Virus record (IMG/VR): IMGVR_UViG_3300012942_000010
Span: 1 to 47,537 of that record
Strand: one strand, 5' to 3'
Source of the DNA: a virus
Taxonomy: Duplodnaviria > Caudoviricetes
DNA: 47,537 nucleotides
Translations under genes and position numbers: made by a program
Shown here: piece by piece, positions 17,407-36,906 of the stretch
How positions within the stretch are numbered: the stretch's first letter is position 1
Layout of the letters: the number at the start of each line of letters is the position of its first letter
Notes under the pieces: model-generated
The model's input: only the letters and a program-made list of their open reading frames with translations
Told to the model about the DNA's origin: nothing
Database searches by the model: none

Positions 17407-18323
17407 TACCACAACCCCATCGGAGTCGGCCACGCACGGCGCATACGGAGCTGTATTCCAGCACCAATGGGAGCACCGGTCACAGAGACCGGCAGTACGA
17501 TCGGATGCTGTTTAGTTCCGGTGTATTCGGTAACTCCGTACATGAACCGAACACCGTTCATGCGCATGTAGTACATGGTGTCCAGAGACGAATTGAACTG
17601 GCCGTTTTTAGCGTCCGGGTCAACGTCAACCAGAACGTGTTCACCCTCGATAGTGGGGGCCATTACAATACGTCGGGTAGCGTCTGCACCGTCCGGCCGA
17701 TCGTGCTTAGCCTCTTGACCAAAGCTGTAATCCGGGATAGTCCATACGATCCCCGCTGTACCCTGAAACATCCATTGCGGGTACATAATGATCGGAGTTT
17801 CGTTGTACAGGTTAACGGTGCCGTTTTCGGTACCTCCACCCGTGGTATCCGTAGTTGTTTCGTACGAGGATGTATCAACAGGCTCGTACCACCACGGATC
17901 ACCCGCTACGACTTCCATAGTGACCTTGGCGTATTGAGACCTGCCGGGGTCGATAGTGGGGCGCATATCCGAGTTCTTGGATAGCCGAACACACAGATAC
18001 CGCCGAGACGATTCCGTCTCATACCAGATCTTTGATTCCCGGTCGGTTCGGAACGCTCGGATAAAGTCGCTCCAATTCTTCTCCCACGTGGAGCCGGGAG
18101 TTTTCAGAATATGGACATCGAATGTCAGGGTCCGCTTATCAACGCGAGACCCACCGTAGTCGGCTCCGTCCTGAAACGCCGTGGAATTCCAAAGCGTTGA
18201 CGTAGGTGCGTACCAGAATCCGGAAACATCCTCAGCTAGCCACACACCCCGGTCACCTTTGCCGCGACCGATCAAAGTCCAGAATTGCCCATCCCAAGAC
18301 TCGACTTGAATAATGGTATCCAT
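17406..18323 (-). CDS. Distal tail protein
   Basis: Follows the tape measure gene; GDRGVWLA...AGDPWW. Confidence 0.85.
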   Translation of the reverse strand: MDTIIQVESWDGQFWTLIGRGKGDRGVWLAEDVSGFWYAPTSTLWNSTAFQDGADYGGSRVDKRTLTFDVHILKTPGSTWEKNWSDFIRAFRTDRESKIWYETESSRRYLCVRLSKNSDMRPTIDPGRSQYAKVTMEVVAGDPWWYEPVDTSSYETTTDTTGGGTENGTVNLYNETPIIMYPQWMFQGTAGIVWTIPDYSFGQEAKHDRPDGADATRRIVMAPTIEGEHVLVDVDPDAKNGQFNSSLDTMYYMRMNGVRFMYGVTEYTGTKQHPIVLPVSVTGAPIGAGIQLRMRRAWPTPMGLW

Positions 18324-18373
18324 TTAAACCTTAGGAATATGAGGCCCGTAGGTTCGGCCTACGGGCCTATTAC

Positions 18374-21300
18374 TTAGCGTCGTCCAATAAACGTCGCGGA
18401 CTGCGAACGCTGGGCTGCAAGCTGGGCATTGATTTGCTGGATAACAGTCCCTTGGATCTGTTTGACCAGCTGTTCGATAGCCCCATCACCCGAACTCGGT
18501 GCACCGATATCCCCAAGGAACTGGTTAAAGTTCGCCTGAGCGAAGTCGTTACCCATACCTTGCAGGCGGGTACCCACATCAGAAGCCGTAATCTGATTCT
18601 GTGTAGCGGATGGAGTCACCGTGTACGGAGAATCGGTTGCACCCGGATTAGGGTTGACCACGACGGTTTGCATCTGCACACCGGGTGCCGTGTTCAGGGA
18701 ACCGATAGCCTCGCCTAGTTTCCCTTGGCCTAGAAGCTGCACGAACTTCGTAAACAGTTTCCACTGATCATTAGTCAAAACAGCTTCAGGCTTACCCGAC
18801 TGGTTGATGCCGATCGAGTTGTTCGGGAAGATACCGCCCGAGTCATACCAGTTATGAGCCATCCAAAACTGTTGTGCCTTGATCGGATCGCCGTACCTGT
18901 CACGGATATATCGAGCCATCGCGTCACCCTGTACACCCGGATTCGTATTGGAATCCGGTAGGTACTGGTCCTTGGTGCTACCCAAGAACTGAGCTAGACC
19001 GAACGCACCTGAGCTCGGGTTAACCGCTGTCGGATTCCATCCGGACTCGCGTCCGATAATCCAGCTAGCAGCGGCGAACTCCGCACCGTCACCCCAGCCG
19101 TAGCGCGCAAACGCTTGCTGCACCTGGTCACGCACCGGGCCCTCGCCCGGTTGACCCGCGCTCTGATCTTCGGTAGTCGACTTACCCCGGATGAAATCTA
19201 GGGTTGAATCTGCCACCTTGTGATACAGAGCTTTAGGCATTTGACCGTACGGGCCAGGGAAGGCAGGAATAATCGCTTCGAGTGCCTTTACAGGAATCTC
19301 GAAAAGATTAGCGATCTTATCCCGGATGAACGACATGATGCCGCCCCCACCGGGACCGGCCGACTCGAACTTTCCATCCATGATGGGGAGGTGGTACCGA
19401 GTGGGGAACTCGGAGTTATCCGCACCTGCGGCAGCACCGCCGTACGCCACGTTGCCGTGGCTACCGCCCGATTCAACATTGATGGCGGGGTACTTACCCG
19501 CAGCGCTTAGCGTTCCGGCTGTATGGCCGTTAGCACCGCCCGAATCAGCTCCACCGATAACACCGATAGAGAATCCCTGCCCGAGTCCACCTACCCAGCG
19601 TTGCCCACCGGCGTTAACGTCGGAGCCCTGAGACTTCGGGAATGCGGTTGTAGCCCACCAGCGACCGTGACCGGTACCGCCCAAGACCACATCCGCAATA
19701 GCGGACATGAACCCTGAACAGTCCGTAGGTCCGGGAGCTTCTCCACCCATGAGATACGCGCGACCGTCCATAGAACGGGCGAACTCATGCGCCGATATAA
19801 GCTGTGCGGTTACCTCACCACCAGCGGCGAACTTAGGCACCAACGAAGCAAGTCCGTCAGCAGTTCCACCACCGTTGATTCGGTTCAGGTTGTCGATACC
19901 GATACGCGCTGTGGTAGCCGCGTTAAGAACGAACTCACCGTTCGACAACATCGCAGGAATCTTGTCGTCCTTCGGACCACCGGCACCTGAGACGTAACCA
20001 CCAGTAGCGAGCTTGATAGGCTCGATACCCTGAATCTCGGGTAGGTGCAGGAATCCGGCAACCTTGTTCCATGCTGCGAAGATTCCGTTATTAAGGATCT
20101 TGTCAATCACGAAGTTAATCGGATCGGCCATGACCTTTTTAATGCCATCCCACACCTTGCCGATGTAGCTAACTGCGGTGTTGAAGGCATCCTTAACGAG
20201 ACCTAGCGCGGACTTGATTCCGTCAAAGACTGGCGTAATAACCTTGTCGTAGACGAACTTAAGTCCAGTGCCTAGCGCGTTCCACGCAGGCGAAATAACC
20301 TTGTCCCAAATGTAGGTAAAGAACGAACCGATACCATCTAGGGCTGTGTGTAGCGCGTCCCATGTCGGCTTGATAACCGAGTTGTATACCCCGGAAATTA
20401 CCGCGCCAATTCCATCCCAAGCGGGCTTCAGAGCGTTGTTCCACAGCCACATAGCGGCTGCGCCGAAAGCATCGAAGATCGGCTTAATCAACGAGTTGTA
20501 GACCGACTTGATTGCTCCACCGAACAGGTTCCACGCAATCAATGCCGGTGCGATAAGCACCGTCAGCAAGATTCCCGCAGCAATGCGGATAGCCTCACCG
20601 AACCCGTTAAATACGGGCTTCAGTACCGAGTTCCACACTGTGCTGAAAATCGAGCCGATAGCGTTCCACGCGGGAACGATTACGTCTCGCCACAGCCACA
20701 AAAAGAAATTGCCGATCGTTGGGAGAAGCTGACCAATGAAGTTCAATGCCGGAATCAGAACCGGCAATAGAACGTTAGTCACCAGCCACGCGAAAGCGTT
20801 AGCTAGACCGGTCACCAGCGGAGCTAGCGCCACAATAATGCTCACCAACGGTGGCAGTAGTTCGAGCGCGATTTGTAGAAGCGCAGGAATCAGAGGCAGT
20901 AGTGACGTAAGGATGTTCTCGAACGCGGATACGATCGTTGGCAGGATCGGTGCAAGCTGGGTAATCGCCGAGACGAGAGCCTGACCGATAGTGTTAGCTA
21001 CCTGAGCTAGTACAGGTGCAATCGACTGGAATACCGGCATAAGCGATGCCGACAATTGCGAGATAACCGGCCCTAGCGCGTTGGTCAACGCGGTAAGTCC
21101 GGGTGCGAGTGCCTGAACCAGCATGTTCGCCACCTGAGCGAACAACGGCACAATCGGCTGTAGTCCCGAGATAATCGAGGTGAACAACGCAGCGATCGGT
21201 GGCAGAGCCGGGGCCAGCGCGTTCACAGCCTGAACCAGCGCGTTACCAACAATCTGTGTCACCTGGGACAGTGGCCCGATAATCGGTGTAATCGCTGTAC

Positions 21301-27508: not shown

Positions 27509-27579
27509 CTCCCCGGGCTGGAATCGAACCAACTAGGGCCACATTTCGTAGTGGCGCTCATCCATTGAGCTTCCGGGGA
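27509..27579 (-). tRNA. Atypical tRNA (Arg-ACG-like) with an 8-nt anticodon loop
   Basis: TCCCCGG/CCGGGGA acceptor, GCTC-AATGGAT-GAGC, GCCAC-TACGAAAT-GTGGC, GTTGG-TTCGATT-CCAGC. Confidence 0.7.
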
Positions 27580-27585
27580 AGTTTG

Positions 27586-28314
27586 TTACTGAGAATCCAT
27601 GGCGCGATACGCAGCCATGATGTTGTCCACCGTGCGGGTAAGCCCCGCTTCGTCTACTGCGGCCGCAACCTTTTCGTAGTCTTGCTCGTAAGCCTCGACA
27701 TACTTAGGCGGGTGGTAAGAACCACCGGGGCGAACCATTACAGCCTCACAACGGCAATGGTCGTGGTAGCTGTCGTCGGTGTGCTTAGGTGGTGCTAGGG
27801 TCCCTCGATTACGTCTAGGTCCCGTACCGTGGTACAGAGCCTGTTTATCGGACGCATACACAGCACCGCGTGTAGCCAGCATTTGACAAAACCTGCAAGC
27901 TCCCGGTTCAGCATGCCTAGCCCACTTAGCCCCCGGCTCGTTGTCCGCATTCAGCACAATCGTTCTACGAGCCGAATCATGGAACATCCGGGTAGCCGAA
28001 CCGTCTAGGTTCACTTCGCTTTGTGGTGTGGACAAAGCCCATCTGAGCGAAGCCTGAAGCTGAGCCACCGGAGCTAGGTCGGCTGTAGTGGCAACGAACG
28101 ACTTATTAGGAGATGGCGCTTCGTCGTACCACGTAGCCGCTAGCTCAGCGGCAAGCTGTAGGTGCGGAGTGATGATGTCCGGATACGCTTGTTCCGCGTA
28201 CACCGCAAACTCGGGAGCCGATAAAACCTGGGCTTGTGCCCATAGCTTCCCGAGCTTGGTTCTGTACTGAGGTTCATACGAAATCAGTAGGTCGCGGAAC
28301 TCTTCCGGAGTCAC
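27586..28314 (-). CDS. MuF-like minor capsid/capsid maturation protein
   Basis: ACRFCQMLATRGAVY...YHDHCRC; follows the portal. Confidence 0.82.
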   Translation of the reverse strand: MTPEEFRDLLISYEPQYRTKLGKLWAQAQVLSAPEFAVYAEQAYPDIITPHLQLAAELAATWYDEAPSPNKSFVATTADLAPVAQLQASLRWALSTPQSEVNLDGSATRMFHDSARRTIVLNADNEPGAKWARHAEPGACRFCQMLATRGAVYASDKQALYHGTGPRRNRGTLAPPKHTDDSYHDHCRCEAVMVRPGGSYHPPKYVEAYEQDYEKVAAAVDEAGLTRTVDNIMAAYRAMDSQ

Positions 28315-29756
28315 GCCGCACTAGGGGCGGGCGTATTGGCCCCTGGTTGCGCCGTAGGCGAGTTTTGGGGTTGACCCGGTGTAGTTGCTTGGGTCTGCTG
28401 TGCTGCAAGGTCTCTGAGGGTTGCTTTTCGCTTGTCCTTCTCCACCTGAGCCACCTCGACATCGGTCAAACCGATACGGTCGTAGGTGACCTGAGAATCA
28501 GCCGGAAGAACACCAGCACCGACAAGCTTGGTTGCCTCATCAGCCGCAGCCGAACGGGTCGGTGTAGCAGCATCACGCCAGCGCACCGCGACCTCGGTCT
28601 CAAAGCCCTTCGGGACCGATCCCTCACGCATGAGCATGATCAGGCGCGCTACCTCTAGCCATGCCTTGCCGAACACGAGCTGCCGACGCTCGGCGCGCTT
28701 GACTAGTCGGGTCTCCATGGCCCGGATAGCATCCGCACTGGCCGCCTGATCACTTGCGAACCCCAAATACGTTGGGGGGATGGCACATTCAGCCGCGAAC
28801 ATCTGGGCTAGGCCCCGAACCTGTTCGAGGTACGGGCCCGGCTGTGACTGTGCGAACTGGCCGACGCTCGGAGTAGCTTCGGGGTTGTCTTCGTCGTACG
28901 GAGCAACAAGCATCCGACCGGAAATAGCTTCCCAGCCGGTAATAGTTCCGCCGTCTGCCTTTTGAAACATATTTTCGGATACGCCAACTGCGTAACGCTG
29001 GGGGGCAGAGTAGAACTCCCGATTCACCTCCATCCCCAGGAGCGTCCGGACGGCGGCATCTGTATATCCGCGAACAGCCTGCGAGATTTCCGAGCGACCA
29101 TTAACCCGTGATGCGCGCGGCCGGTTGACCAGTGGAGCCACTGGAACACGGCCTAGGTTGTGCTGGTCCCGGTTAATGACTTCCCACGGGACAGAGCTAG
29201 AACCACGGGACATATAAATCGTCTGGTCCGGCAGGTAAAGCGTTGCTTCAACCTCTGCGTGAGTCTCAGGGTCTTTGAACCGAGAAGCAGCAGAGCCGAG
29301 ACGACGGGTGCGGGGATTCCAAATACCCGTCATATCCCGAGGAGACTCGACAGTAATCAACTGGTCCGGCTCACCGTCCGCACCCGAACCGACACACGCA
29401 AATGCGATGCCGTAAATCAGTGCGTCTAGGTGACCTAGTCCGGAATCTACGTCCAAGTCATTAGCCGAGAAGACATCCGCCAGACCAAAATCCGTACCGG
29501 ATTCAACCCAGCCAAGCCAATCTAGGCGTTCCTCCAGAACGTCAACCGCTGTACCCGACCAGCCAACCACGGTGCGAATAGCGTCCAGAACACGCGGTGG
29601 AATCGAGATACCTAGCTGACGTACCCGCTGTTCGCCCTCGTAGTACGCTTCCTTAATACGATTACGAGCCTCGAAGCGAGCTAGCTTGCCGAGAAGTAGA
29701 TCTAGTTGGTACTGCTCTTCTTGAGAGAGCGTATCCAACGTAATAAGGGTAGCCAT
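28311..29756 (-). CDS. Portal protein
   Basis: YYEGEQ, HNLGRVPV, GRSEIS and EFYSAPQR. Confidence 0.93.
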   Translation of the reverse strand: MATLITLDTLSQEEQYQLDLLLGKLARFEARNRIKEAYYEGEQRVRQLGISIPPRVLDAIRTVVGWSGTAVDVLEERLDWLGWVESGTDFGLADVFSANDLDVDSGLGHLDALIYGIAFACVGSGADGEPDQLITVESPRDMTGIWNPRTRRLGSAASRFKDPETHAEVEATLYLPDQTIYMSRGSSSVPWEVINRDQHNLGRVPVAPLVNRPRASRVNGRSEISQAVRGYTDAAVRTLLGMEVNREFYSAPQRYAVGVSENMFQKADGGTITGWEAISGRMLVAPYDEDNPEATPSVGQFAQSQPGPYLEQVRGLAQMFAAECAIPPTYLGFASDQAASADAIRAMETRLVKRAERRQLVFGKAWLEVARLIMLMREGSVPKGFETEVAVRWRDAATPTRSAAADEATKLVGAGVLPADSQVTYDRIGLTDVEVAQVEKDKRKATLRDLAAQQTQATTPGQPQNSPTAQPGANTPAPSAA

Positions 29757-31246
29757 TAGTTCATCACCATTATCTTGGTCTTTGCCGCTTTACGGCGAGT
29801 ACGGGGCTTAGCCGTAACGAAGCCCCATAGCGCCAAAGTCACGGCAACTACCGGGGTGATGTCGGATTCGGAAAGCTTTCGACCCCACGCCCACATATCA
29901 CCAAGCGGGCGTTGCCGACCGGCGTCTACCGCCGCAGTAAGCCCCGGCTGGTCAGGATGTCGAAGGGTCTTTGACATAACCGCGTCGTAGAACATTCCGC
30001 AGGCAATACCGAGTTCCTGAGCGCTGGTCCGGTAAACCGGGACCTTAAGTGCGTCTAGTTCGGGAACAACCGACGATGCAGGGCCGTCTACCACGATTGC
30101 TACAACATGATGCTGCGCAATAAGCTGGGTGAGCCGGGGGATAATCCACGATGTACCCTTGCGGTTGTCGATAACTTCGACGTGGAATCTGCCATCCGAG
30201 CGAAGACCCGCAACGGCGATAGTTGCTGAGTCGCGCTTAGGTCCGATATCAACGGCGAACGCTACGGGCTGAGTGGTGACAGAACTACTGTCTTTGACAT
30301 CGTCCCAAGACTCGGGGTCGATAACCGCTCCGGTACCGGCGAAGCGCCAACACCCACCGCGCTCACGCGCGAAACCCTCTTCCGAGAAGTCGTCAAGGTC
30401 CTCTAGAAGTTCTTCCAGCCCAGTACGGATATTCAGAGCCGGGTTAGCCATAGCGATTTGCGCTAGGTCGTACGGGTCTCCATCATCATCCATGCTCCAT
30501 TCCAGGTAACACGTACGGCGAGACGTACCCGCGAGAGCTTTGGTGCGGATATTCGTAAAAACCTCGGAGTTCATGTTCTCCGAGGGGGGCGTACCCGTCC
30601 ATATAAGCTGACGGTTCTTAAGTGGTGCAGCCGCAGTAGTAGGACTCAGAGCCTCCAGGGCGTCGAAGCCCATTTCCTGAGCTTCGTCCATCACTACGAT
30701 ATCCACCGTGAACCCACGGGACGAGTTCTTGGAGCGAGCAACGAACTCTACTGAGCCGCCATTCTTCAGGAAAATAGCTTCCTGACCGTTGGTCTTACGG
30801 ATATCGACAACCAACGCTGCTAGCTCTGGGTATTTTTTCGGATTCTCGAAGAACGAGGCCAGACGCAAGAACGCTTTGCGGGCCGTCTTAACTTCATGGG
30901 CGGTGTGTAGGATTTTCTCCCCTAGTCCGACCATCCCAAAGAGTTCGCGGATTTCAAGTAGGGCATTCTTGCCGTTCTGGCGCGGAACTGACAGCGCAGA
31001 GCGTGAATGGCACCATTTACCGTCCGCACGGAATCCCAACCACTGACGAAGTACGTATTCCTGCCAAGGGTCCGGGGTTAGCCCGTACTTCGAGGCCAAG
31101 AACGCTGCTTCATCGGCGTAGTTGCCTACCTGTGTGCATTCAATAAACAGCCGGGGAGTCTGGACACCCTTGGTACTCCGAATTTGTTCTTCGGAGTAGT
31201 TACCCAGTTGCACCACGCTTTCGTTCGAGTCGCTGGGTGAACTCAT
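29756..31246 (-). CDS. terL: Terminase large subunit
   Basis: Walker A PRQNGK, Walker B VVMDEAQE, nuclease FAVD and DITP. Confidence 0.95.
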   Translation of the reverse strand: MSSPSDSNESVVQLGNYSEEQIRSTKGVQTPRLFIECTQVGNYADEAAFLASKYGLTPDPWQEYVLRQWLGFRADGKWCHSRSALSVPRQNGKNALLEIRELFGMVGLGEKILHTAHEVKTARKAFLRLASFFENPKKYPELAALVVDIRKTNGQEAIFLKNGGSVEFVARSKNSSRGFTVDIVVMDEAQEMGFDALEALSPTTAAAPLKNRQLIWTGTPPSENMNSEVFTNIRTKALAGTSRRTCYLEWSMDDDGDPYDLAQIAMANPALNIRTGLEELLEDLDDFSEEGFARERGGCWRFAGTGAVIDPESWDDVKDSSSVTTQPVAFAVDIGPKRDSATIAVAGLRSDGRFHVEVIDNRKGTSWIIPRLTQLIAQHHVVAIVVDGPASSVVPELDALKVPVYRTSAQELGIACGMFYDAVMSKTLRHPDQPGLTAAVDAGRQRPLGDMWAWGRKLSESDITPVVAVTLALWGFVTAKPRTRRKAAKTKIMVMN

Positions 31247-31424
31247 CTAGGGGGGTGTCCTTAATATCTTGCGGGGTAAGTTCTTGAATCTTGTCCTGAA
31301 CTTCTAGGTACATTTTGAAAAGAGCCGCGTACGGTTGTCCTTTAGAGAAGGCCATACGTTCGACAAGCTGAGCGCGAGCGGCTAGAAGCGCTTCGCGTAG
31401 GTTGGAATCTTCTAGATCGGCCAT
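31200..31424 (-). CDS. terS: Terminase small subunit
   Basis: Overlaps the terL start; TPLDEFTQRLE end; GAAGGA RBS. Confidence 0.72.
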   Translation of the reverse strand: MADLEDSNLREALLAARAQLVERMAFSKGQPYAALFKMYLEVQDKIQELTPQDIKDTPLDEFTQRLERKRGATG

Positions 31425-31440
31425 TGTTTTCCTTCGTGAG

Positions 31441-31512
31441 AGCTTCCACGAGGACTCGAACCCCGCACTTGTGTTTACAAGACACATGCTTTGCCAGATA
31501 AGCTATGGAAGC
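31441..31512 (-). tRNA. tRNA-Thr(TGT)
   Basis: Cloverleaf; TGTGT-CTTGTAA-ACACA. Confidence 0.92.
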
Positions 31513-31554
31513 GAAACCCGATATTTTAGCATCCGCGTCGGGTTATGCGCCGAG

Positions 31555-31628
31555 TAATCCCGGCAGGATTCGAACCTGCAACGTACTGGGTGTAAACCAG
31601 TTGTTCTCCCGGATTGAACTACGGGACT
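31555..31628 (-). tRNA. tRNA-Val(TAC)
   Basis: Cloverleaf; ACTGG-TTTACAC-CCAGT. Confidence 0.9.
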
Positions 31629-31752
31629 TTGAAGCGGAACTTCGGACTTGGTGAGCCATATTCGCGGCGTTCCGCTAACCGCCCCCTGTCGCGACTGCTC
31701 GGAACAGCCACAGAGGTCTACACGTTCTACTCCGAGTATCAGTGCAGCGCTG

Positions 31753-31835
31753 TTGCTCTGGTGAGATTCGAACTCACATGACATAAAGCCACTGGAACCT
31801 AAATCCAGCGCGTATACCAATTTCGCCACAGAGCA
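31753..31835 (-). tRNA. tRNA-Leu(TAG)
   Basis: Cloverleaf with long variable arm; CTGGA-TTTAGGT-TCCAG. Confidence 0.92.
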
Positions 31836-31871
31836 CAGCTGGACGTGCCATTCCTAGGAGACACGTCCGCG

Positions 31872-31955
31872 CGGAAAGCTGAGGAGTCGAACCCCCGGGT
31901 GTTACCCCGCCCCCGGTTTTCAAGACCGGTTGCCTACCACTAAGCGGAGCCTTCC
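31872..31955 (-). tRNA. tRNA-Ser(TGA)
   Basis: Long variable arm, G73; CCGGT-CTTGAAA-ACCGG. Confidence 0.92.
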
Positions 31956-32023
31956 ATCTCTCGGGTTACGCGCCGAGTCGCGAGCCGTCACAGCCATGTG
32001 TTTACGGTATTTCCGTAAGAGCG

Positions 32024-32097
32024 TGAGGATACAGAGATTCGAACTCTGAATTTCAGTTTGGAAGACTGACGTGTTAGCCGTTAAACACTACATCCCC
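32024..32097 (-). tRNA. tRNA-Gly(TCC)
   Basis: Cloverleaf; TCAGT-CTTCCAA-ACTGA; discriminator is A rather than the usual U. Confidence 0.88.
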
Positions 32098-32173
32098 AAA
32101 GCCTCCAGGGCCTTTTACGTGTACACCCTTACGAGGTGACAACCCAGAGGCTAGTGTGCGGATGGCTACCGTA

Positions 32174-32297
32174 GCCACACCACCCGCGTCCTAACCTGTC
32201 GGCTCACCAACCGTCCGGATGGCTGCGTAAGGGTTAGAAGTATGTGGCCCCGCAAAGGGGGCCGATCCGTCCAGACCGACTTAACGGGTGGTGTGGC
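32174..32297 (-). ncRNA. Candidate structured RNA closed by a perfect 13-bp stem
   Basis: GCCACACCACCCG/CGGGTGGTGTGGC enclosing nested helices. Confidence 0.45.
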
Positions 32298-32328
32298 AGC
32301 ACTCCAAGGACGGAAGTATTATTCGAGC

Positions 32329-32562
32329 ATGGACGACGATGTACAGGTTCCGTACGCGCTCGAAGAACTGGACTCGGGTGTATGGCTGGGATACGCATAC
32401 CCGAAACCTGGTGAAATGGTGTGGGGTCGCGGTGCGACCCGTGAAGAGGCTATAGCCGATATCCGGGTGAAGTGCCTGGAGGCTCTTACCGGAATTCAAC
32501 ACCCGAAGCGCCGTACTGATACGAGTCTGCGTGAAAGTCGTAATTCAGATGAGCCCCAGTAG
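32329..32562 (+). CDS. HicB-like protein, leaderless, antisense to the late arm
   Basis: ELDSGVWLGY...GRGATREEAIADIR; TATTAT 6 nt before the ATG. Confidence 0.65.
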   Translation: MDDDVQVPYALEELDSGVWLGYAYPKPGEMVWGRGATREEAIADIRVKCLEALTGIQHPKRRTDTSLRESRNSDEPQ

Positions 32563-33106
32563 CTACGTATCCGTACCAGCCTGCCGGGACGTTGCACACG
32601 ACATCGTCATGGTTGCAGACCTCTAGGACCGGAACCGGGCCGAACCAGTCGTCTACACCCGCAAGCGGCCAACCGATGATCCGGTTACCCGGGATGCTAG
32701 CCAGACCGGCTCCGGCCGGTCCAGCTGCACGCTTGGGATCCGCAATGAGTACGGCTGAGGTATCCGCGACCGGGTTGTCAGTAACCCATGCGTGGATGAT
32801 TGCAGCGCCTTCAGAATGCCCGACCAGCTTAATGTGGTCGGCCGGACACACCGCCCGGTGACGCCAGTACGCGCGGTCCAGCTCCGAGTAACCCTGAGCC
32901 GGGTTCAGCGTGTCGTACTGAACTCGCTGATCGGCGTAGACGTATGAAGAGTCTTCCCAGGTTCCCGAGTACACGGAGACCTTGGCACCGCCAACACCGA
33001 TGGAGTAATCGCCGGTGCAGCTCACCGGAGCGGCTGTTGCGGGTGTCGCGAAATAAATACTTACGGCCGTAAGTACGGAGCTAAGCGCTAAGGCTAGTTT
33101 CTTCAT
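32486..33106 (-). CDS. Secreted PE-PPE/cutinase-family alpha/beta hydrolase
   Basis: Sec signal MKKLALAL...ATA; GHSEG nucleophile elbow; IADP; DDVVC; late His. Confidence 0.85.
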   Translation of the reverse strand: MKKLALALSSVLTAVSIYFATPATAAPVSCTGDYSIGVGGAKVSVYSGTWEDSSYVYADQRVQYDTLNPAQGYSELDRAYWRHRAVCPADHIKLVGHSEGAAIIHAWVTDNPVADTSAVLIADPKRAAGPAGAGLASIPGNRIIGWPLAGVDDWFGPVPVLEVCNHDDVVCNVPAGWYGYVATGAHLNYDFHADSYQYGASGVEFR

Positions 33107-33587
33107 ATGCATCTTTTTTCGAAGAGTTACAAGAACGATGGGCAAGCTGAAGATTCGACGGAGAATCCGAACCACCCTTTGACCGTGGAATAATGTGGTC
33201 GAGTGTTGCCGCCATCCGGTCGCGTTTACCGTCCAACGTTTGGTCAACCCGTTCTCCACAGATTCCACACGTCCAGTTGTCCCGCTTGTAAATCACCATG
33301 CGCTGAACGGTTGTAATCCACCCGTCTGCGTAGCGAGCGAACTCACTTCGGTAGCTCCGACCAGTACGCTCTTTAAACCGCTTCTGGAACTCACGTTGTG
33401 TAGATGCTTGATACCCCCTACAGACATCACAACGACATCCGTACGAATAACACTGGTAGGTACCGTGCGCGTTCTTAGCTAGCTCGGTCCGGCAGGCACG
33501 ATGCATTGCCTGACCTGGAGGAAGGGACCTACCGTTAGGTTGGAACAGTTCCCCGCAGTACGCACACGGGTACGGCTTACGAGGCAT
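33081..33587 (-). CDS. HNH endonuclease with N-terminal zinc motifs
   Basis: RDNWTCGICG, TLDHIIPRSKGG and LAHRSCN. Confidence 0.9.
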   Translation of the reverse strand: MPRKPYPCAYCGELFQPNGRSLPPGQAMHRACRTELAKNAHGTYQCYSYGCRCDVCRGYQASTQREFQKRFKERTGRSYRSEFARYADGWITTVQRMVIYKRDNWTCGICGERVDQTLDGKRDRMAATLDHIIPRSKGGSDSPSNLQLAHRSCNSSKKDAYEETSLSA

Positions 33588-33727
33588 CGGAAAATCCCTA
33601 AGTTAAGAGGGGCTAAGACGAGTTTTTAAGCCGGGGAGGGATCGGCCGCTATGTGTCGAGAGAGGCCCGCGCGGAGGGTGGGAGGGTCACCCCCCTAGGG
33701 TGGTGTTTGTCAAGGGGTTGACAAGAA

Positions 33728-33916
33728 CTATTTCAAAGAATCTTTCAAAGCCTTCCACCGAGGATTCACGGTTGACCGACAGCACATGCACTCGCATACA
33801 CCACGCATGCCCGTATTGCGGTCTGGACGGACCGTAGACGGCTCAGGATTGCTCAGGTGGCCATCTACCTCGAATAGGCTGAGTTGGCCTTCACAAGGCT
33901 CGTACACGATCACCAT
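33728..33916 (-). CDS. Hypothetical protein
   Basis: AGGA RBS; overlaps the HNH stop. Confidence 0.55.
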   Translation of the reverse strand: MVIVYEPCEGQLSLFEVDGHLSNPEPSTVRPDRNTGMRGVCECMCCRSTVNPRWKALKDSLK

Positions 33917-34200
33917 TCCTGACTGGTTGGAAACAGATCAGCCTTAGTGGCTTGTCGATTGCCTCGTGAGGAGTTGCACTTACGATGTGCAGCTTTGAGG
34001 TTGGACATGTCCGTAAGCGCACCACCACGCGAGCGTGGCACTACATGGTCAGCAGTCCATGACATTGGATCTGTGTATGGCAATGACTGATCAATCTCTT
34101 TACGACATATCCAACACACAGAGCTAGTAGCACGTAGGCGCTTAGTGGTTCGCCTATAGGCTCTATGATCTAAGCCTTTACGTGGCTTAGCATAAGCCAT
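33910..34200 (-). CDS. HNH endonuclease (HK97 gp74-like packaging cofactor)
   Basis: CWIC, ADHVVP and AHRKCN; small and upstream of the terminase module. Confidence 0.88.
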   Translation of the reverse strand: MAYAKPRKGLDHRAYRRTTKRLRATSSVCWICRKEIDQSLPYTDPMSWTADHVVPRSRGGALTDMSNLKAAHRKCNSSRGNRQATKADLFPTSQEW

Positions 34201-34231
34201 AATAAAACAACCTTGCTTCGAAGATTAAAGG

Positions 34232-34409
34232 TGAGTCGTACGGGAATCGAACCCGTATGCACAGTGCCCTGTGGAGTGCCATCTCTCCCAACGACGGATT
34301 CGAACCGTCACCTATCCAAGGAACTCACCAAGCTAAAGCGTAGGTGCTCTACTGAGGAGCTAAGCGTCTACCGTGAAACGGAATTACGACTGCAAAGTCA
34401 CTACGACTC
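34232..34409 (-). ncRNA. Nested tRNA-like RNA with two T arms
   Basis: Outer GAGTCGT/ACGACTC-A plus ACGGG-TTCGATT-CCCGT; inner D arm plus GACGG-TTCGAAT-CCGTC. Confidence 0.7.
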
Positions 34410-34811
34410 AGGAACACCTACGCATCTAGTGATGTACCAGCATTGCTACGAGACTTGCACATGCGTGCGTACACCAAGTATTAAGCCGACCCTTAAAGGT
34501 CGGCGCAGGTCACTGACCGATCAGGTACGGACCGACGATACGAAGGATGTCTAGTACGTCCTTGACCAACTGAACTAGGTCATTCAGCATTTAATACCCT
34601 TAAGTAGAGCGAGCCTTCGGGGCTCGCGATAAGTAGTTACTGACTAGGACCGCCCTTGGTGGGCGGTCTAACAGTCAGTGGTTACGTGAGGTACGTAGGT
34701 TACGTACCGAACTTGGTCTGTCGCTGCTATCGCAGCTCTGACGCTCGGTCGGTCGCTTCGCTCCCTCCCTCACTAGTCTATTAACTCTGATTTTTCGAGA
34801 ATGCCTTAGAT

Positions 34812-34827
34812 TGTGACCTAGTTCACA
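34812..34827. promoter_or_regulatory. CRP/GlxR-type site TGTGA-N6-TCACA
   Basis: TGTGACCTAGTTCACA is a perfect consensus in the divergent control region. Confidence 0.6.
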
Positions 34828-34871
34828 TGATTATTTGGGTCTGCACAGGCGACTGAAGCTTGGTCTTCGAC

Positions 34872-34884
34872 CTTGACAGTGTCG
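34872..34884 (+). promoter_or_regulatory. Operator CTTGACAGTGTCG
   Basis: 12/13 match to the 13-mer. Confidence 0.8.
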
Positions 34885-34929
34885 AAAACAGCTTGCTACC
34901 TGCAAGAACAAAAGTCGGTACAACACGAG

Positions 34930-34959
34930 CTTGACAGTGTAGGTCGGTAACCGTAGTGT
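34930..34959 (+). promoter_or_regulatory. Main early promoter TTGACA-N17-TAGTGT overlapped by the operator (34930-34942)
   Basis: Read directly; arrangement as for L5 Pleft. Confidence 0.85.
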
Positions 34960-34965
34960 TCATGG

Positions 34966-35283
34966 AGTCAGGCCAACCGGTTCACCGGGAAGCCAGACAC
35001 CGGAGGACACCCCAAGCGGGATCGCAAAGCGATCAGTGCGTGAGCCAGTCCCGAAGTTGATACCTCCGGTTAGGTCAGAGGCTTTCGAGCCTCTGGGGTG
35101 GCGCTACGACCATGACACGGTGGCGAGAACGTCTGAACTACTCGGAGTAGCTTCTACCATCACCACACTGGGGCTCTGAGCAAGCGGACGAGTACCCAGA
35201 CGATACGGGCGAGAGCGTTGGTTCACAGATACGCCGAGACCGCCCACACCATCTCCGGATGAGGCAAAATACGGGTACACACA
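34966..35283 (+). ncRNA. Structured non-coding early leader, 5' domain
   Basis: No long plus-strand ORF; ACCGGAGG/CCTCCGGT, GATCGC-AAA-GCGATC, AGAGGCT-TTCG-AGCCTCT and CTACTC/GAGTAG stems. Confidence 0.55.
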
Positions 35284-35523
35284 GGGTCTGTAGCTCAATG
35301 GCAAAGCACGGATATGGAAGGCTGTTAGCACGCCTATGAGCCACACTTCGGAAACTGAGTGTGGACGGCACACGGTGAAGCGACTGAGGGCTAACCCCCC
35401 GGACGAGCGATAATCCGCTAGCGCAACGGTTGGGAGCTTCATAGTGAACGCTCTAGCACTCTCGGACATAGAGAGACCTGATCCTTCCTAAGTCTAATCC
35501 CGGTTCGATTCCGGGCGGACCCA
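35284..35523 (+). ncRNA. tRNA-like RNA with a ~160-nt structured insert replacing the anticodon loop
   Basis: GGGTCTG/CGGACCC-A, TAGCTCAATGGCAAAGC, CCCGG-TTCGATT-CCGGG; GGAAGG/CCTTCC closes the insert. Confidence 0.78.
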
Positions 35524-35551
35524 CTGCAAAACAACAAACGGAGGTAAGAAC

Positions 35552-35683
35552 ATGAGTCGAGAAGTACTGCCGATGTACGCGGGTATCTGCAAAGTTACCT
35601 ACTCCGGTACCGACGAAAGGCACGGGTATTACCTCAATATCAACGGTTGCCCTGATTGCAACAACCGAAAGGTAAAGCAATGA
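35552..35683 (+). CDS. First early small protein (43 aa)
   Basis: GGAGGT RBS; CPDC motif. Confidence 0.6.
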   Translation: MSREVLPMYAGICKVTYSGTDERHGYYLNINGCPDCNNRKVKQ

Positions 35684-35871
35684 TGGATACAGGTGGAGAT
35701 GTATTGGTTCTCCCACTCCAGGAGGCATTGTACAAGGCTAACGAATTGCGTTCCCGTGGTGTCAATGCGGATGCCGTTGCTTATCCAGTCCCCTACTCAG
35801 TAGGCATAGATCCTCCGGATTCAAAGTACGCTATAAGTACTCCGTTGGGATTCTGGCGAGTAGGTGACTAG
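35680..35871 (+). CDS. Early hypothetical protein
   Basis: GAAAGGT RBS; ATGA overlap. Confidence 0.65.
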   Translation: MMDTGGDVLVLPLQEALYKANELRSRGVNADAVAYPVPYSVGIDPPDSKYAISTPLGFWRVGD

Positions 35872-35936
35872 TTAGAGCGGAGCCGGTCCCGTACCGGCTC
35901 CGTTCGAATTATTCAGAACAACTGAAAGGTAAGGAA

Positions 35937-36128
35937 ATGATCTCTGAATACGAAGCGCGTATAGCTCGGTGGGCTGGTCGGTTCGACTTGGACCGGCTCA
36001 CCCCTGAGCAAGCCGAAGGCTTTGCGTGTGTGTCGTGTGGGGGCACCGCAGGGCCATTCGTTGTAGTCGGCAGTGGGAAGCAAAGCTCTCACGTGTTCGC
36101 CTGTGTCGCCTGCGATAAATCCCAGTAG
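35937..36128 (+). CDS. Early small zinc-finger protein
   Basis: CVSC...CVAC; GAAAGGT RBS. Confidence 0.7.
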   Translation: MISEYEARIARWAGRFDLDRLTPEQAEGFACVSCGGTAGPFVVVGSGKQSSHVFACVACDKSQ

Positions 36129-36203
36129 TCCAGATGGTCACCAGTCGGGTTTTAATCCGCCTGGGGGCTGTCTAGACCGCTGGAATCACTATCAGGAGTA
36201 ACA

Positions 36204-36392
36204 ATGGAATTCAAAGTAGGGGACCGGGTTCGGGTACGGCCTATCGACCACTGGTCCGCCGGAGAGACTGGGACTGTTATCCGGAGGATCCTTGGAAACT
36301 TTTATGGATACACCGTTGACGTTCGATTGGACGACGACAGCGAGCCTAACCCCGTTAGCTATAGAGAACATGAATTGAGGATTTTGTCATGA
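36204..36392 (+). CDS. KOW/SH3-like small protein
   Basis: FKVGDRVRV; AGGAG RBS. Confidence 0.72.
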   Translation: MEFKVGDRVRVRPIDHWSAGETGTVIRRILGNFYGYTVDVRLDDDSEPNPVSYREHELRILS

Positions 36393-36601
36393 GTATCCGT
36401 GATTATCGAAACACCCGGGATATCGAGTACAGGGCTGCGCTCGGGTTGTCGCACGGCGAAGCCCTGCCTTCGTCTCTGGGCACCATTTCGCACGGTGGCA
36501 CTGCAAGCTCGCGTAAGCGTGCAGCCCGTAGCTCTTTTTATCGTCGTCAACTTGACAGTGTAGGAGAACGGGGAATCAATGCTTGCGAAGCTGATCGGTA
36601 A
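36389..36601 (+). CDS. Hypothetical protein
   Basis: ATGA overlap; GAGG RBS. Confidence 0.55.
   Translation: MSIRDYRNTRDIEYRAALGLSHGEALPSSLGTISHGGTASSRKRAARSSFYRRQLDSVGERGINACEADR
36551..36563 (+). promoter_or_regulatory. Stoperator CTTGACAGTGTAG
   Basis: Exact 13-mer. Confidence 0.85.
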
Positions 36602-36758
36602 GTCCTGCCCGCAAGGGACTGGGGGCCGTGACTGCGCGTGTTGTGGTCAGGCTCCGGGTAAGCCCCGGAAGGTCACCAAGCGCGCCGCCAAGCGGGGTGA
36701 GCGCCAGGAGTGGCGTAATAGCCTCCAGATGGAGCGGAGCGGCCATGAAACACGCTGA
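36579..36758 (+). CDS. Basic Cys-rich small protein (59 aa)
   Basis: MLAKLIGKSCPQGTGGRDCACC...KRAAKRGERQEWR. Confidence 0.6.
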   Translation: MLAKLIGKSCPQGTGGRDCACCGQAPGKPRKVTKRAAKRGERQEWRNSLQMERSGHETR

Positions 36759-36906
36759 CTACCCTCACACCCCCGGAACGCTCTATGACTGTCCTGCGTG
36801 CGAGTCCGAGTGTTTCTGTGCGGACATGAACACCGTTCACACTACCCGGGGTGAACTGGACGACGCGGCCTGTATCTACTGTTGGGAGACTGAAGTACTT
36901 GGCTAG
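36745..36906 (+). CDS. Cys-rich small protein
   Basis: HADYPHTPGTLYDCPACESECFC...CIYC. Confidence 0.65.
   Translation: MKHADYPHTPGTLYDCPACESECFCADMNTVHTTRGELDDAACIYCWETEVLG

Follow-up and report, generated by a model that had tools for sequence, protein, structure and literature searches.

What is an RNA element with the frame of a tRNA, and with a large insert in place of its anticodon loop, doing directly ahead of the first early gene of a phage? The element is 240 nt long and occupies positions 35284..35523 (+ strand) of the window, by which we mean the whole 47,537-nt stretch of viral DNA that was analyzed (IMG/VR record IMGVR_UViG_3300012942_000010). The repressor of the window phage matches RGL3, cluster CA and cluster A phages, and on sequence grounds the phage is a cluster A/CA-like soil phage related to mycobacteriophage L5.

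The tRNA frame of 35284-35523 is real. All of the frame features named in the first-pass annotation (acceptor, U8-A9, D arm, T arm and A73) were found in their places. The acceptor stem pairs 35284-90 with 35516-22 in 7 bp, one of them U.G, and its 5' strand (35284..35290, +) begins at the predicted RNase P cut, before 35284. It is followed by U8, A9 and a D arm with A14, G18 and G19 (35291..35308, +) on a 3-bp stem (35293-95/35305-07); the 3' half of this arm matches the D arm of the same phage's tRNA-Thr. The T arm (35499-35515) runs into the acceptor 3' strand, the discriminator A73 (35523) and C74 (35524), together spanning 35499..35524 (+). CCA is encoded neither here nor in any of the window's five tRNAs. 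The 7-bp acceptor, D arm and T arm of a canonical tRNA are thus all present; a canonical tRNA was nevertheless rejected, as an irregular helix and 161 nt of inserted sequence stand where its anticodon arm (5-bp stem, 7-nt loop) and variable arm (4-5 nt or long) would be. When introns were allowed, ARAGORN called the element at default score; it was not called in default mode. A purpose-built shell detector called the element, and of all shells in the window exceeding 100 nt it alone has a 7/7 acceptor. A chance-like call of 566 nt with a 6/7 acceptor was also made there, and no shell was found in 100 dinucleotide shuffles of the window. The element's T arm is the only one on the + strand between 28,000 and 36,900. 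The element is covered with zero differences by one Logan contig, which may come from the source sample; a sequencing run (X2) covers only leader positions 34979-35129, outside the element.

The stability of the whole-element fold is not exceptional (z -1.36; 20/200 shuffles equally good). The acceptor had a pair probability of 0.99 in the isolated 240-mer and of 0.65, 0.45, 0.26, 0.19 and 0.00 in longer contexts, so other pairings compete with the frame in the nascent RNA. Computed pairing of the D arm was low (0.21), because its tertiary contacts lie outside the folding model.

At the anticodon position, an irregular helix with its 5' strand at 35310..35321 and its 3' strand at 35483..35495 (both +) leads into the insert. 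The GGAAGG/CCTTCC helix said earlier to open the anticodon arm is present (35316-21/35483-88). Two features outside it had been overlooked, namely a 4-bp helix GGAT/GTCT (35310-13/35492-95) and, between the two helices, a receptor loop. The strands UAUGG (35313-17) and CCUAAG (35487-92) are the exact 11-nt GAAA-tetraloop receptor sequence, UAUGG/CCUAAG being the consensus of this receptor (PMC10004510). When the inner 191 nt of the element were shuffled 200,000 times, both receptor strands were present in 1,920 shuffles, a receptor flanked by at least 2 pairs on each side in 21, and a flanked receptor together with a closed GAAA in 2; the test was picked after the motif had been noticed, and these figures overstate the case somewhat. 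Among 10 pairs of receptor strands within 300 nt of each other in the window, that of the element is the only helix-flanked one. The element also supplies the second half of a tetraloop/receptor system, a GAAA loop (35351-54), which is a candidate docking partner of the receptor. This loop caps, as G-GAAA-C, the hairpin CCACACT/AGTGTGG at 35341..35364 (+), the insert's best-defined hairpin, with probabilities of 0.94 for its stem and 0.42 for the closing G-C.

The insert itself (35322..35482, +; 161 nt, in place of the anticodon loop) has a folding z of -1.8 and contains three well-defined hairpins, the other two being AGCG/CGCT with a 6-nt loop (35406..35419, +; pair probabilities 0.84-0.95) and CTCTC/GAGAG with a 7-nt loop (35459..35475, +; 0.93-0.94). 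The first-pass annotation had proposed nested inner helices. Each listed helix exists as a complementary pair, but the long-range nesting was disfavored: TGTTAG/CTAGCA and CTATGA/TCATAG had mean pair probabilities of 0.05 and 0.01, compared with 0.60 and 0.69 for the rival helices GTTAG/CTGAT and GTGAAGC/GCTTCAT, and the nesting costs 4.1 kcal/mol more than these. The alternative pairing GTTAGC/GCTAAC fared no better (probability 0.01), and the inner fold first proposed is probably not the right one.

A homolog of the insert was not found in any search that was run. Rfam covariance models, including GOLLD, ROOL and tmRNA, gave no match to the element. Blastn in 50,697 phage records returned only T-arm-sized matches, and blastn in plasmids, as well as blastn and nhmmer over the collected loci, returned no homolog of the element. 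The exact 5' 18-mer occurs at 17 loci in IMG/VR, of which 16 read as ordinary tRNAs and one as a 5' fragment. Pattern searches for D arm to T arm (125 loci, 3/64 parts of the database) gave 8 long shells, none alike; searches for the receptor 3' strand plus T loop (120 loci, 35/64 parts) and for the D arm plus receptor 5' strand (120 loci, 10/64 parts) gave no homolog. A search for a short form like that of locus L244 (described below) gave 120 loci in 59/64 parts, 32 of them with a T stem, which read as ordinary tRNAs or chance matches. A DNA search of 401 genomes gave one 33-nt match at chance level (E 0.002 per genome) with no Rfam match, a single-sequence model run against 151 genomes found only one 71-nt tRNA, and single-protein locus searches with the repressor and RecB found no close relative. 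With no homolog of the insert found, its predicted fold and function rest on a single sequence.

The setting of the element is that of an early leader RNA. A predicted early promoter overlapped by an operator-like repeat lies at 34930..34959 (+), with TTGACA at 34931-36, a 17-nt spacer and TAGTGT at 34954-59. These roles are inferred. The repeat has 9 copies in the window (7 on the + strand, 2 on the - strand), the promoter/repeat layout is alike in the related locus L152 and at Pleft of L5, and a strict sigma-70 scan did not call the promoter. The predicted non-coding 5' part of the leader spans 34966..35283 (+), its start being taken from L5 spacing, and contains no sense-strand ORF of at least 50 aa. 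Its first ~60 nt align with L152, and there is a weak alignment to the L5 leader (0/60 shuffles, z 3.3, one of 64 comparisons). From ~34966 to A73 the predicted leader is about 558 nt long. The element ends 28 nt before the first early ATG, as noted at first pass (A73 at 35523, ATG at 35552). The ribosome-binding site and first early ORF, of 43 aa, lie at 35539..35683 (+), and the first 33 aa of this ORF have no PHROG match. We also observed that leader positions 35056-35071 are complementary to the ribosome-binding site region 35536-35551 of this gene. The pairing is present in the full-length fold and would be freed by cutting at the element; complementarity of this type was not seen by eye in L152. 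A search for an antisense target in the phage's own genome gave none (best E 1.3).

An RNA with a comparable position has been described from L5, D29 and StarStuff, where the Pleft RNA is the most abundant early transcript, at about 500 nt (Dedrick et al. 2017, PMC5712189). It is partly processed to species of 100-400 nt, read by the authors as having the Pleft 5' end in common, and is toxic when cloned (PMC5712189). Its 3' end was placed in the region 51,140-51,190 of L5, with no terminator seen and the end unexplained, and two deletions ending at 51,195 could not be made (PMC5712189). In L5, mRNA levels drop by >90% downstream. High expression at the corresponding position has also been described for WC1 and Kampy. 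Our analysis revealed a 93-nt tRNA look-alike at 51,226-51,134 of L5, adjoining the published 3' end region; from the Pleft start to its 3' end is 539 nt. Both unmakeable deletions remove its 5' acceptor strand, plus much else, and the viable deletion spares it. The passages of PMC5712189 that were searched hold no tRNA-like description of the Pleft end. Likewise, among titles and abstract openings, in a search mostly outside the subscription and old literature, none described a tRNA-like end on the Pleft RNA or an insert of this kind. The L5 look-alike occupies the same site as the window element, flanked by a TTGACA promoter with an overlapping operator on one side and the first early gene on the other, at the end of a leader of similar predicted length; it differs in its size, its 6-bp acceptor and its first hairpin. 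The window element is predicted to be the 3' end of a ~560-nt leader that is the counterpart of the L5 Pleft RNA.

Short look-alikes are common in this slot. We fetched 134 related loci via a RecB-like gene, of which 41 remained after dereplication and a requirement for at least 5 kb upstream. Scanning 360 kb of sense strand upstream of this gene gave 30 elements with an acceptor plus T arm, spread over 21/41 loci. The 363 kb downstream gave 0, a single shuffle of every upstream region likewise 0, and the opposite strand 6, among which are tRNA-cluster items and the L282 shell. A few of the 30 calls, such as L274:8342, are probably spurious; the remaining 20/41 loci had no call with this strict detector, which missed T arms in some loci (L174, L223). 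Most of the 30 (26) are followed, after 15-65 nt (median 36), by a ribosome-binding site plus start codon. C72-R73-C74 is found in 26/30, compared with 12% at random positions, and CCA is encoded in 2/30. Directly before the first early gene, a short fold of acceptor and T arm is present in RGL3, AngryOrchard, Kimona and L5. The interior varies from 11 to about 100 nt in total, and the shortest look-alikes measure about 42 nt. Five loci (L156, L169, L171, L269, L271) carry several short look-alikes each, every one ahead of a different early gene, an arrangement that reads as repeated punctuation of the early transcript.

An L5-type subfamily of 10 members, chosen by eye, showed double changes in 8/16 pairs (0/500 shuffles; slid controls 2-4); related sequences can beat such shuffles without structure, although the slid controls were low. 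A model of this subfamily recovered two members outside its alignment, L176 (E 1.6e-10) and L282 (E 1.4e-7), and did not match the window element at E 1. The link of the element to L5 is therefore one of position and architecture, not of sequence; in position, acceptor and T arm, and C72-R73-C74, it conforms to the L5-type look-alikes. Relatives fill the slot with differing folds, and the comparison of these sequences indicates that the early-leader slot itself is retained but its content is exchanged and changes in size. Of the full-frame forms seen in it, that of the window is the largest.

The closest match to the frame came from another soil phage, L244. A single-sequence model of the window element, run against 80 sources, matched itself, another tRNA-like element of the window, two sequences by their T arms only, and L244 at 876-958 (E 1.3e-4). 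This look-alike occupies the same slot, downstream of a TTGACA promoter, and is the best 5' match among the 30 look-alikes (0/5000 shuffles). In its acceptor, C2-G71 replaces G2-C71, a compensatory change, and U6-A67 replaces U6.G67; the D arm is reduced, with GG, and UAU and UAAG are retained at matching places. Its third arm is a short hairpin with no insert, and its loop is only a variant receptor, in which C-G and G.U replace two G-C pairs alongside a 4-nt bulge. By these matches, one soil phage has the frame of the window element without the insert. MAFFT failed to align the window element with its short relatives. L273, L274 and L283 share the D-like arm of L244 and have third arms of differing length. 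A GUGA-capped hairpin lies directly 5' of the L244 look-alike (L244:856-869) and is a possible docking partner for the receptor-like loop. L152 (RecB 76%), the one of five closer relatives (RecB 76-81%) whose locus was read, is the closest relative by protein in this comparison. Its slot holds a different look-alike of 76 nt, at the end of a leader of only about 265 nt. L152 also carries a second shell of ~123 nt (1779-1901) right after tRNA-Lys, with an encoded CCA, an enlarged anticodon arm and an acceptor that resembles that of the window element.

Other tRNA-like elements were observed in the window and elsewhere. On the - strand, 34231-34332 is tRNA-like with two tandem T arms (34309, 34256), no normal anticodon arm and a weak Rfam tRNA match. 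It ends about 30 nt ahead of the first late gene (HNH, 34200), so both divergent operons open with a tRNA look-alike. The element at 27509-27580 (-), between the VG15 and scaffold genes, has A8 and an 8-nt anticodon loop and was not called by ARAGORN at default. Two to three strong hairpins lie between tRNA-Leu and tRNA-Val at 31629-31751 (-). In a Mycolicibacterium houstonense locus, L282 (-) 18249-18377 is a 129-nt tRNA shell whose anticodon position holds a branched insert. The IMG/VR phages L046 (476-626) and L093 (394-543) have a complete tRNA nested in the anticodon arm of another shell, which resembles a nested case in Lak phages (PMC6784885).

We lean slightly towards reading the element as a processing and end-marking signal for host tRNA enzymes that has expanded into a tRNA scaffold and is at least partly released as a ~240-nt RNA. 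Transcription would start at about 34966, from the operator-overlapped promoter, and the acceptor, D and T arms would fold into a tRNA elbow. A 3' cut or trimming at A73/C74, by RNase Z or an exonuclease, would be followed by CCA addition. This cut would end the ~560-nt RNA, give the early mRNA a new 5' end about 28 nt before the first ATG and lower early-gene mRNA relative to the leader. RNase P would cut before G35284 in part of the transcripts. C74 pairs with RNase P RNA, and on long-leader precursors lacking CCA, RNase P acts before RNase Z in B. subtilis (PMC1874595); several non-tRNA phage RNAs are acted on by RNase P (PMC11143913). The element would not be decoded, as it has no anticodon loop, and the insert would fold compactly by docking of the GAAA tetraloop on the 11-nt receptor. 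The element may descend from an L244-type, tRNA-derived look-alike that gained about 160 nt in its third arm, which varies in length among relatives. For the cargo, a structural job is most likely, as a compact nuclease-resistant domain that would stabilize the RNA, and the domain may present a surface to a host factor. The first-pass annotation had suggested that the tRNA frame lets host RNase P and 3' enzymes excise and stabilize a cargo. As a processing signal the frame gained comparative support, from the look-alikes in the early regions of relatives and from the L5 end; the different look-alike in the slot of L152 and the fall of acceptor pairing in longer contexts were counted against this, and the shared Pleft 5' end of the smaller L5 species, as read in PMC5712189, against an excised piece. 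A stronger version, in which RNase P and 3' enzymes excise a 240-nt RNA whose ribozyme-like 160-nt domain has its own activity on a host factor, and in which the short look-alikes are the empty carrier and explain the Pleft 3' end, is a possibility that we think unlikely. If true, a cargo domain would be delivered in the first minutes of infection.

It is also possible, although we think it unlikely, that the element is never excised and serves as the 3' domain of one stable ~560-nt RNA, protecting its end, with the insert as its working domain, which in L5 would lie upstream of the short look-alike. The largest L5 species (~500 nt, PMC5712189) fits the 539 nt from Pleft to the end of the L5 look-alike, the predicted leader here is of similar total length (~558 nt), and the weak alignment sets the 5' leader against the dispensable 5' half of the L5 RNA, as delimited in that report, and the element opposite the undeletable half. 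On the other side, the insert has no sequence likeness to the L5 3' half (z 1.0), the L152 leader is much shorter, and a 7-bp acceptor, a D arm and C74 are what RNase P reads. A decoy is improbable: a tRNA mimic would occupy anticodon nucleases, tRNA-sensing defense proteins or translation factors, the insert shielding it from anticodon cleavage. Such a role would suit the early, repressor-controlled position, the complete D and T arms, the stable tRNA-like RNAs of T5 and T4 and the toxicity on expression of the L5 locus (PMC5712189). Nothing in the analysis points to a target, however, and elements of down to about 42 nt suffice in relatives. The anticodon loop, which is what anticodon nucleases read, is missing from the element.

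Equally improbable is a decaying tRNA gene with a random insertion whose inner structure arose by chance. The element is single-copy, its insert has a folding z of only -1.8, and unrelated long-insert shells recur in phages (L082, L096, L111, L113, L314, the second L152 shell and L282). In contrast, acceptor, D and T arms are intact around 190 nt of interior, the exact receptor is accompanied by a GAAA loop, and the sole + strand T arm of the 28,000-36,900 region stands in a slot that relatives keep filled. We regard it as very improbable that the element is an intron-bearing tRNA gene, the intron being of known or new type, from which splicing yields a functional tRNA. ARAGORN calls tRNA-Ile(GAT) with a 165-nt intron, the 3' side holds CCU-AA, resembling an Arg(CCU) anticodon loop, and phage tRNA introns have been reported in Lak phages (PMC6784885). 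However, the ARAGORN product joins within a stem, with C at position 37, and the Arg-like product has 2-3 nt between anticodon and T stems and an intron that would not end in G. At a lowered threshold ARAGORN accepted 514/531 in-silico excisions, and is hence non-discriminating; the excision products inspected by eye were non-canonical. Group I and II introns were rejected: Rfam gave no match to E 5, the candidate ends of a 161-171 nt insert do not fit, and likeness to group I or to domain V of group II was dismissed by eye against the consensus features. Splicing enzyme, ligase and maturase were absent among the 34 large ORFs. Least probable of all, and in our view barely worth entertaining, is a shrunken tmRNA-like RNA. 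In tmRNA, P2 is a long irregular helix with a short linker before the T stem, and the long irregular anticodon-position helix and 3-nt linker of the element resemble it. The G3-C70 pair, the paired 3-bp D stem and negative results with the Rfam tmRNA model and with ARAGORN in tmRNA mode, down to a 60% threshold, bear out the earlier exclusion of tmRNA, and a tag ORF was not found, as three-frame translation of the element gave short stop-broken frames only.

Among the early RNAs of cluster A mycobacteriophages, the most abundant has an unexplained end and an end-proximal part that could not be deleted (PMC5712189), and a tRNA look-alike at the Pleft end is directly testable in L5 or D29 by point mutations. 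The window would hold the extreme form, the same slot with a full frame and a domain bearing a ribozyme-type tertiary-contact signature, which suggests that phage tRNA mimics can carry folded cargo beyond serving as cut sites.

The general design of the element is known from T5 RNA1 and RNA2, annotated as 'tRNA-like stable RNA with unknown functions' (144 and 125 nt), and from T4 species 1 RNA (rnaC, 139 nt). A literature search on the T5 RNAs, mostly outside the subscription and old literature, returned nothing. In all three, tRNA ends and a T arm enclose a folded interior of increased size, and a normal anticodon arm is absent; the preferred reading, a partly released scaffold, likely resembles the T5 RNAs. 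They differ from the window element in lying in tRNA clusters, in being about 100 nt shorter, in having no receptor strands and in having no detectable sequence likeness to the insert. [quoted passage not shown] 2014, PMC4201824). In the parts of that work consulted, YrlA has a Ro60 gene alongside and an internal acceptor-like stem, whereas the RNA ends form the acceptor of the window element. YrlA was rejected, with no Rfam match and no TROVE family (Ro60) among the 34 large ORFs, a set that left out the tape measure and short ORFs. Plant mitochondrial t-elements are likewise tRNA-like folds at mRNA ends that signal to RNase P and RNase Z (Forner et al. 2007, PMC1920247); they are from a eukaryotic organelle and are described there without a large cargo, and cutting of the window element is only predicted. 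A further parallel is the artificial tRNA scaffold of Ponchon and Dardel, in which an insert replaces the anticodon stem, both the D arm and the T arm remain in place, and the RNAs are matured by the host and accumulate in E. coli (PMC5937877). The window element would be its natural counterpart. New here are the size of the element, the receptor-GAAA pair and the link of short leader elements to a full cargo-bearing frame.
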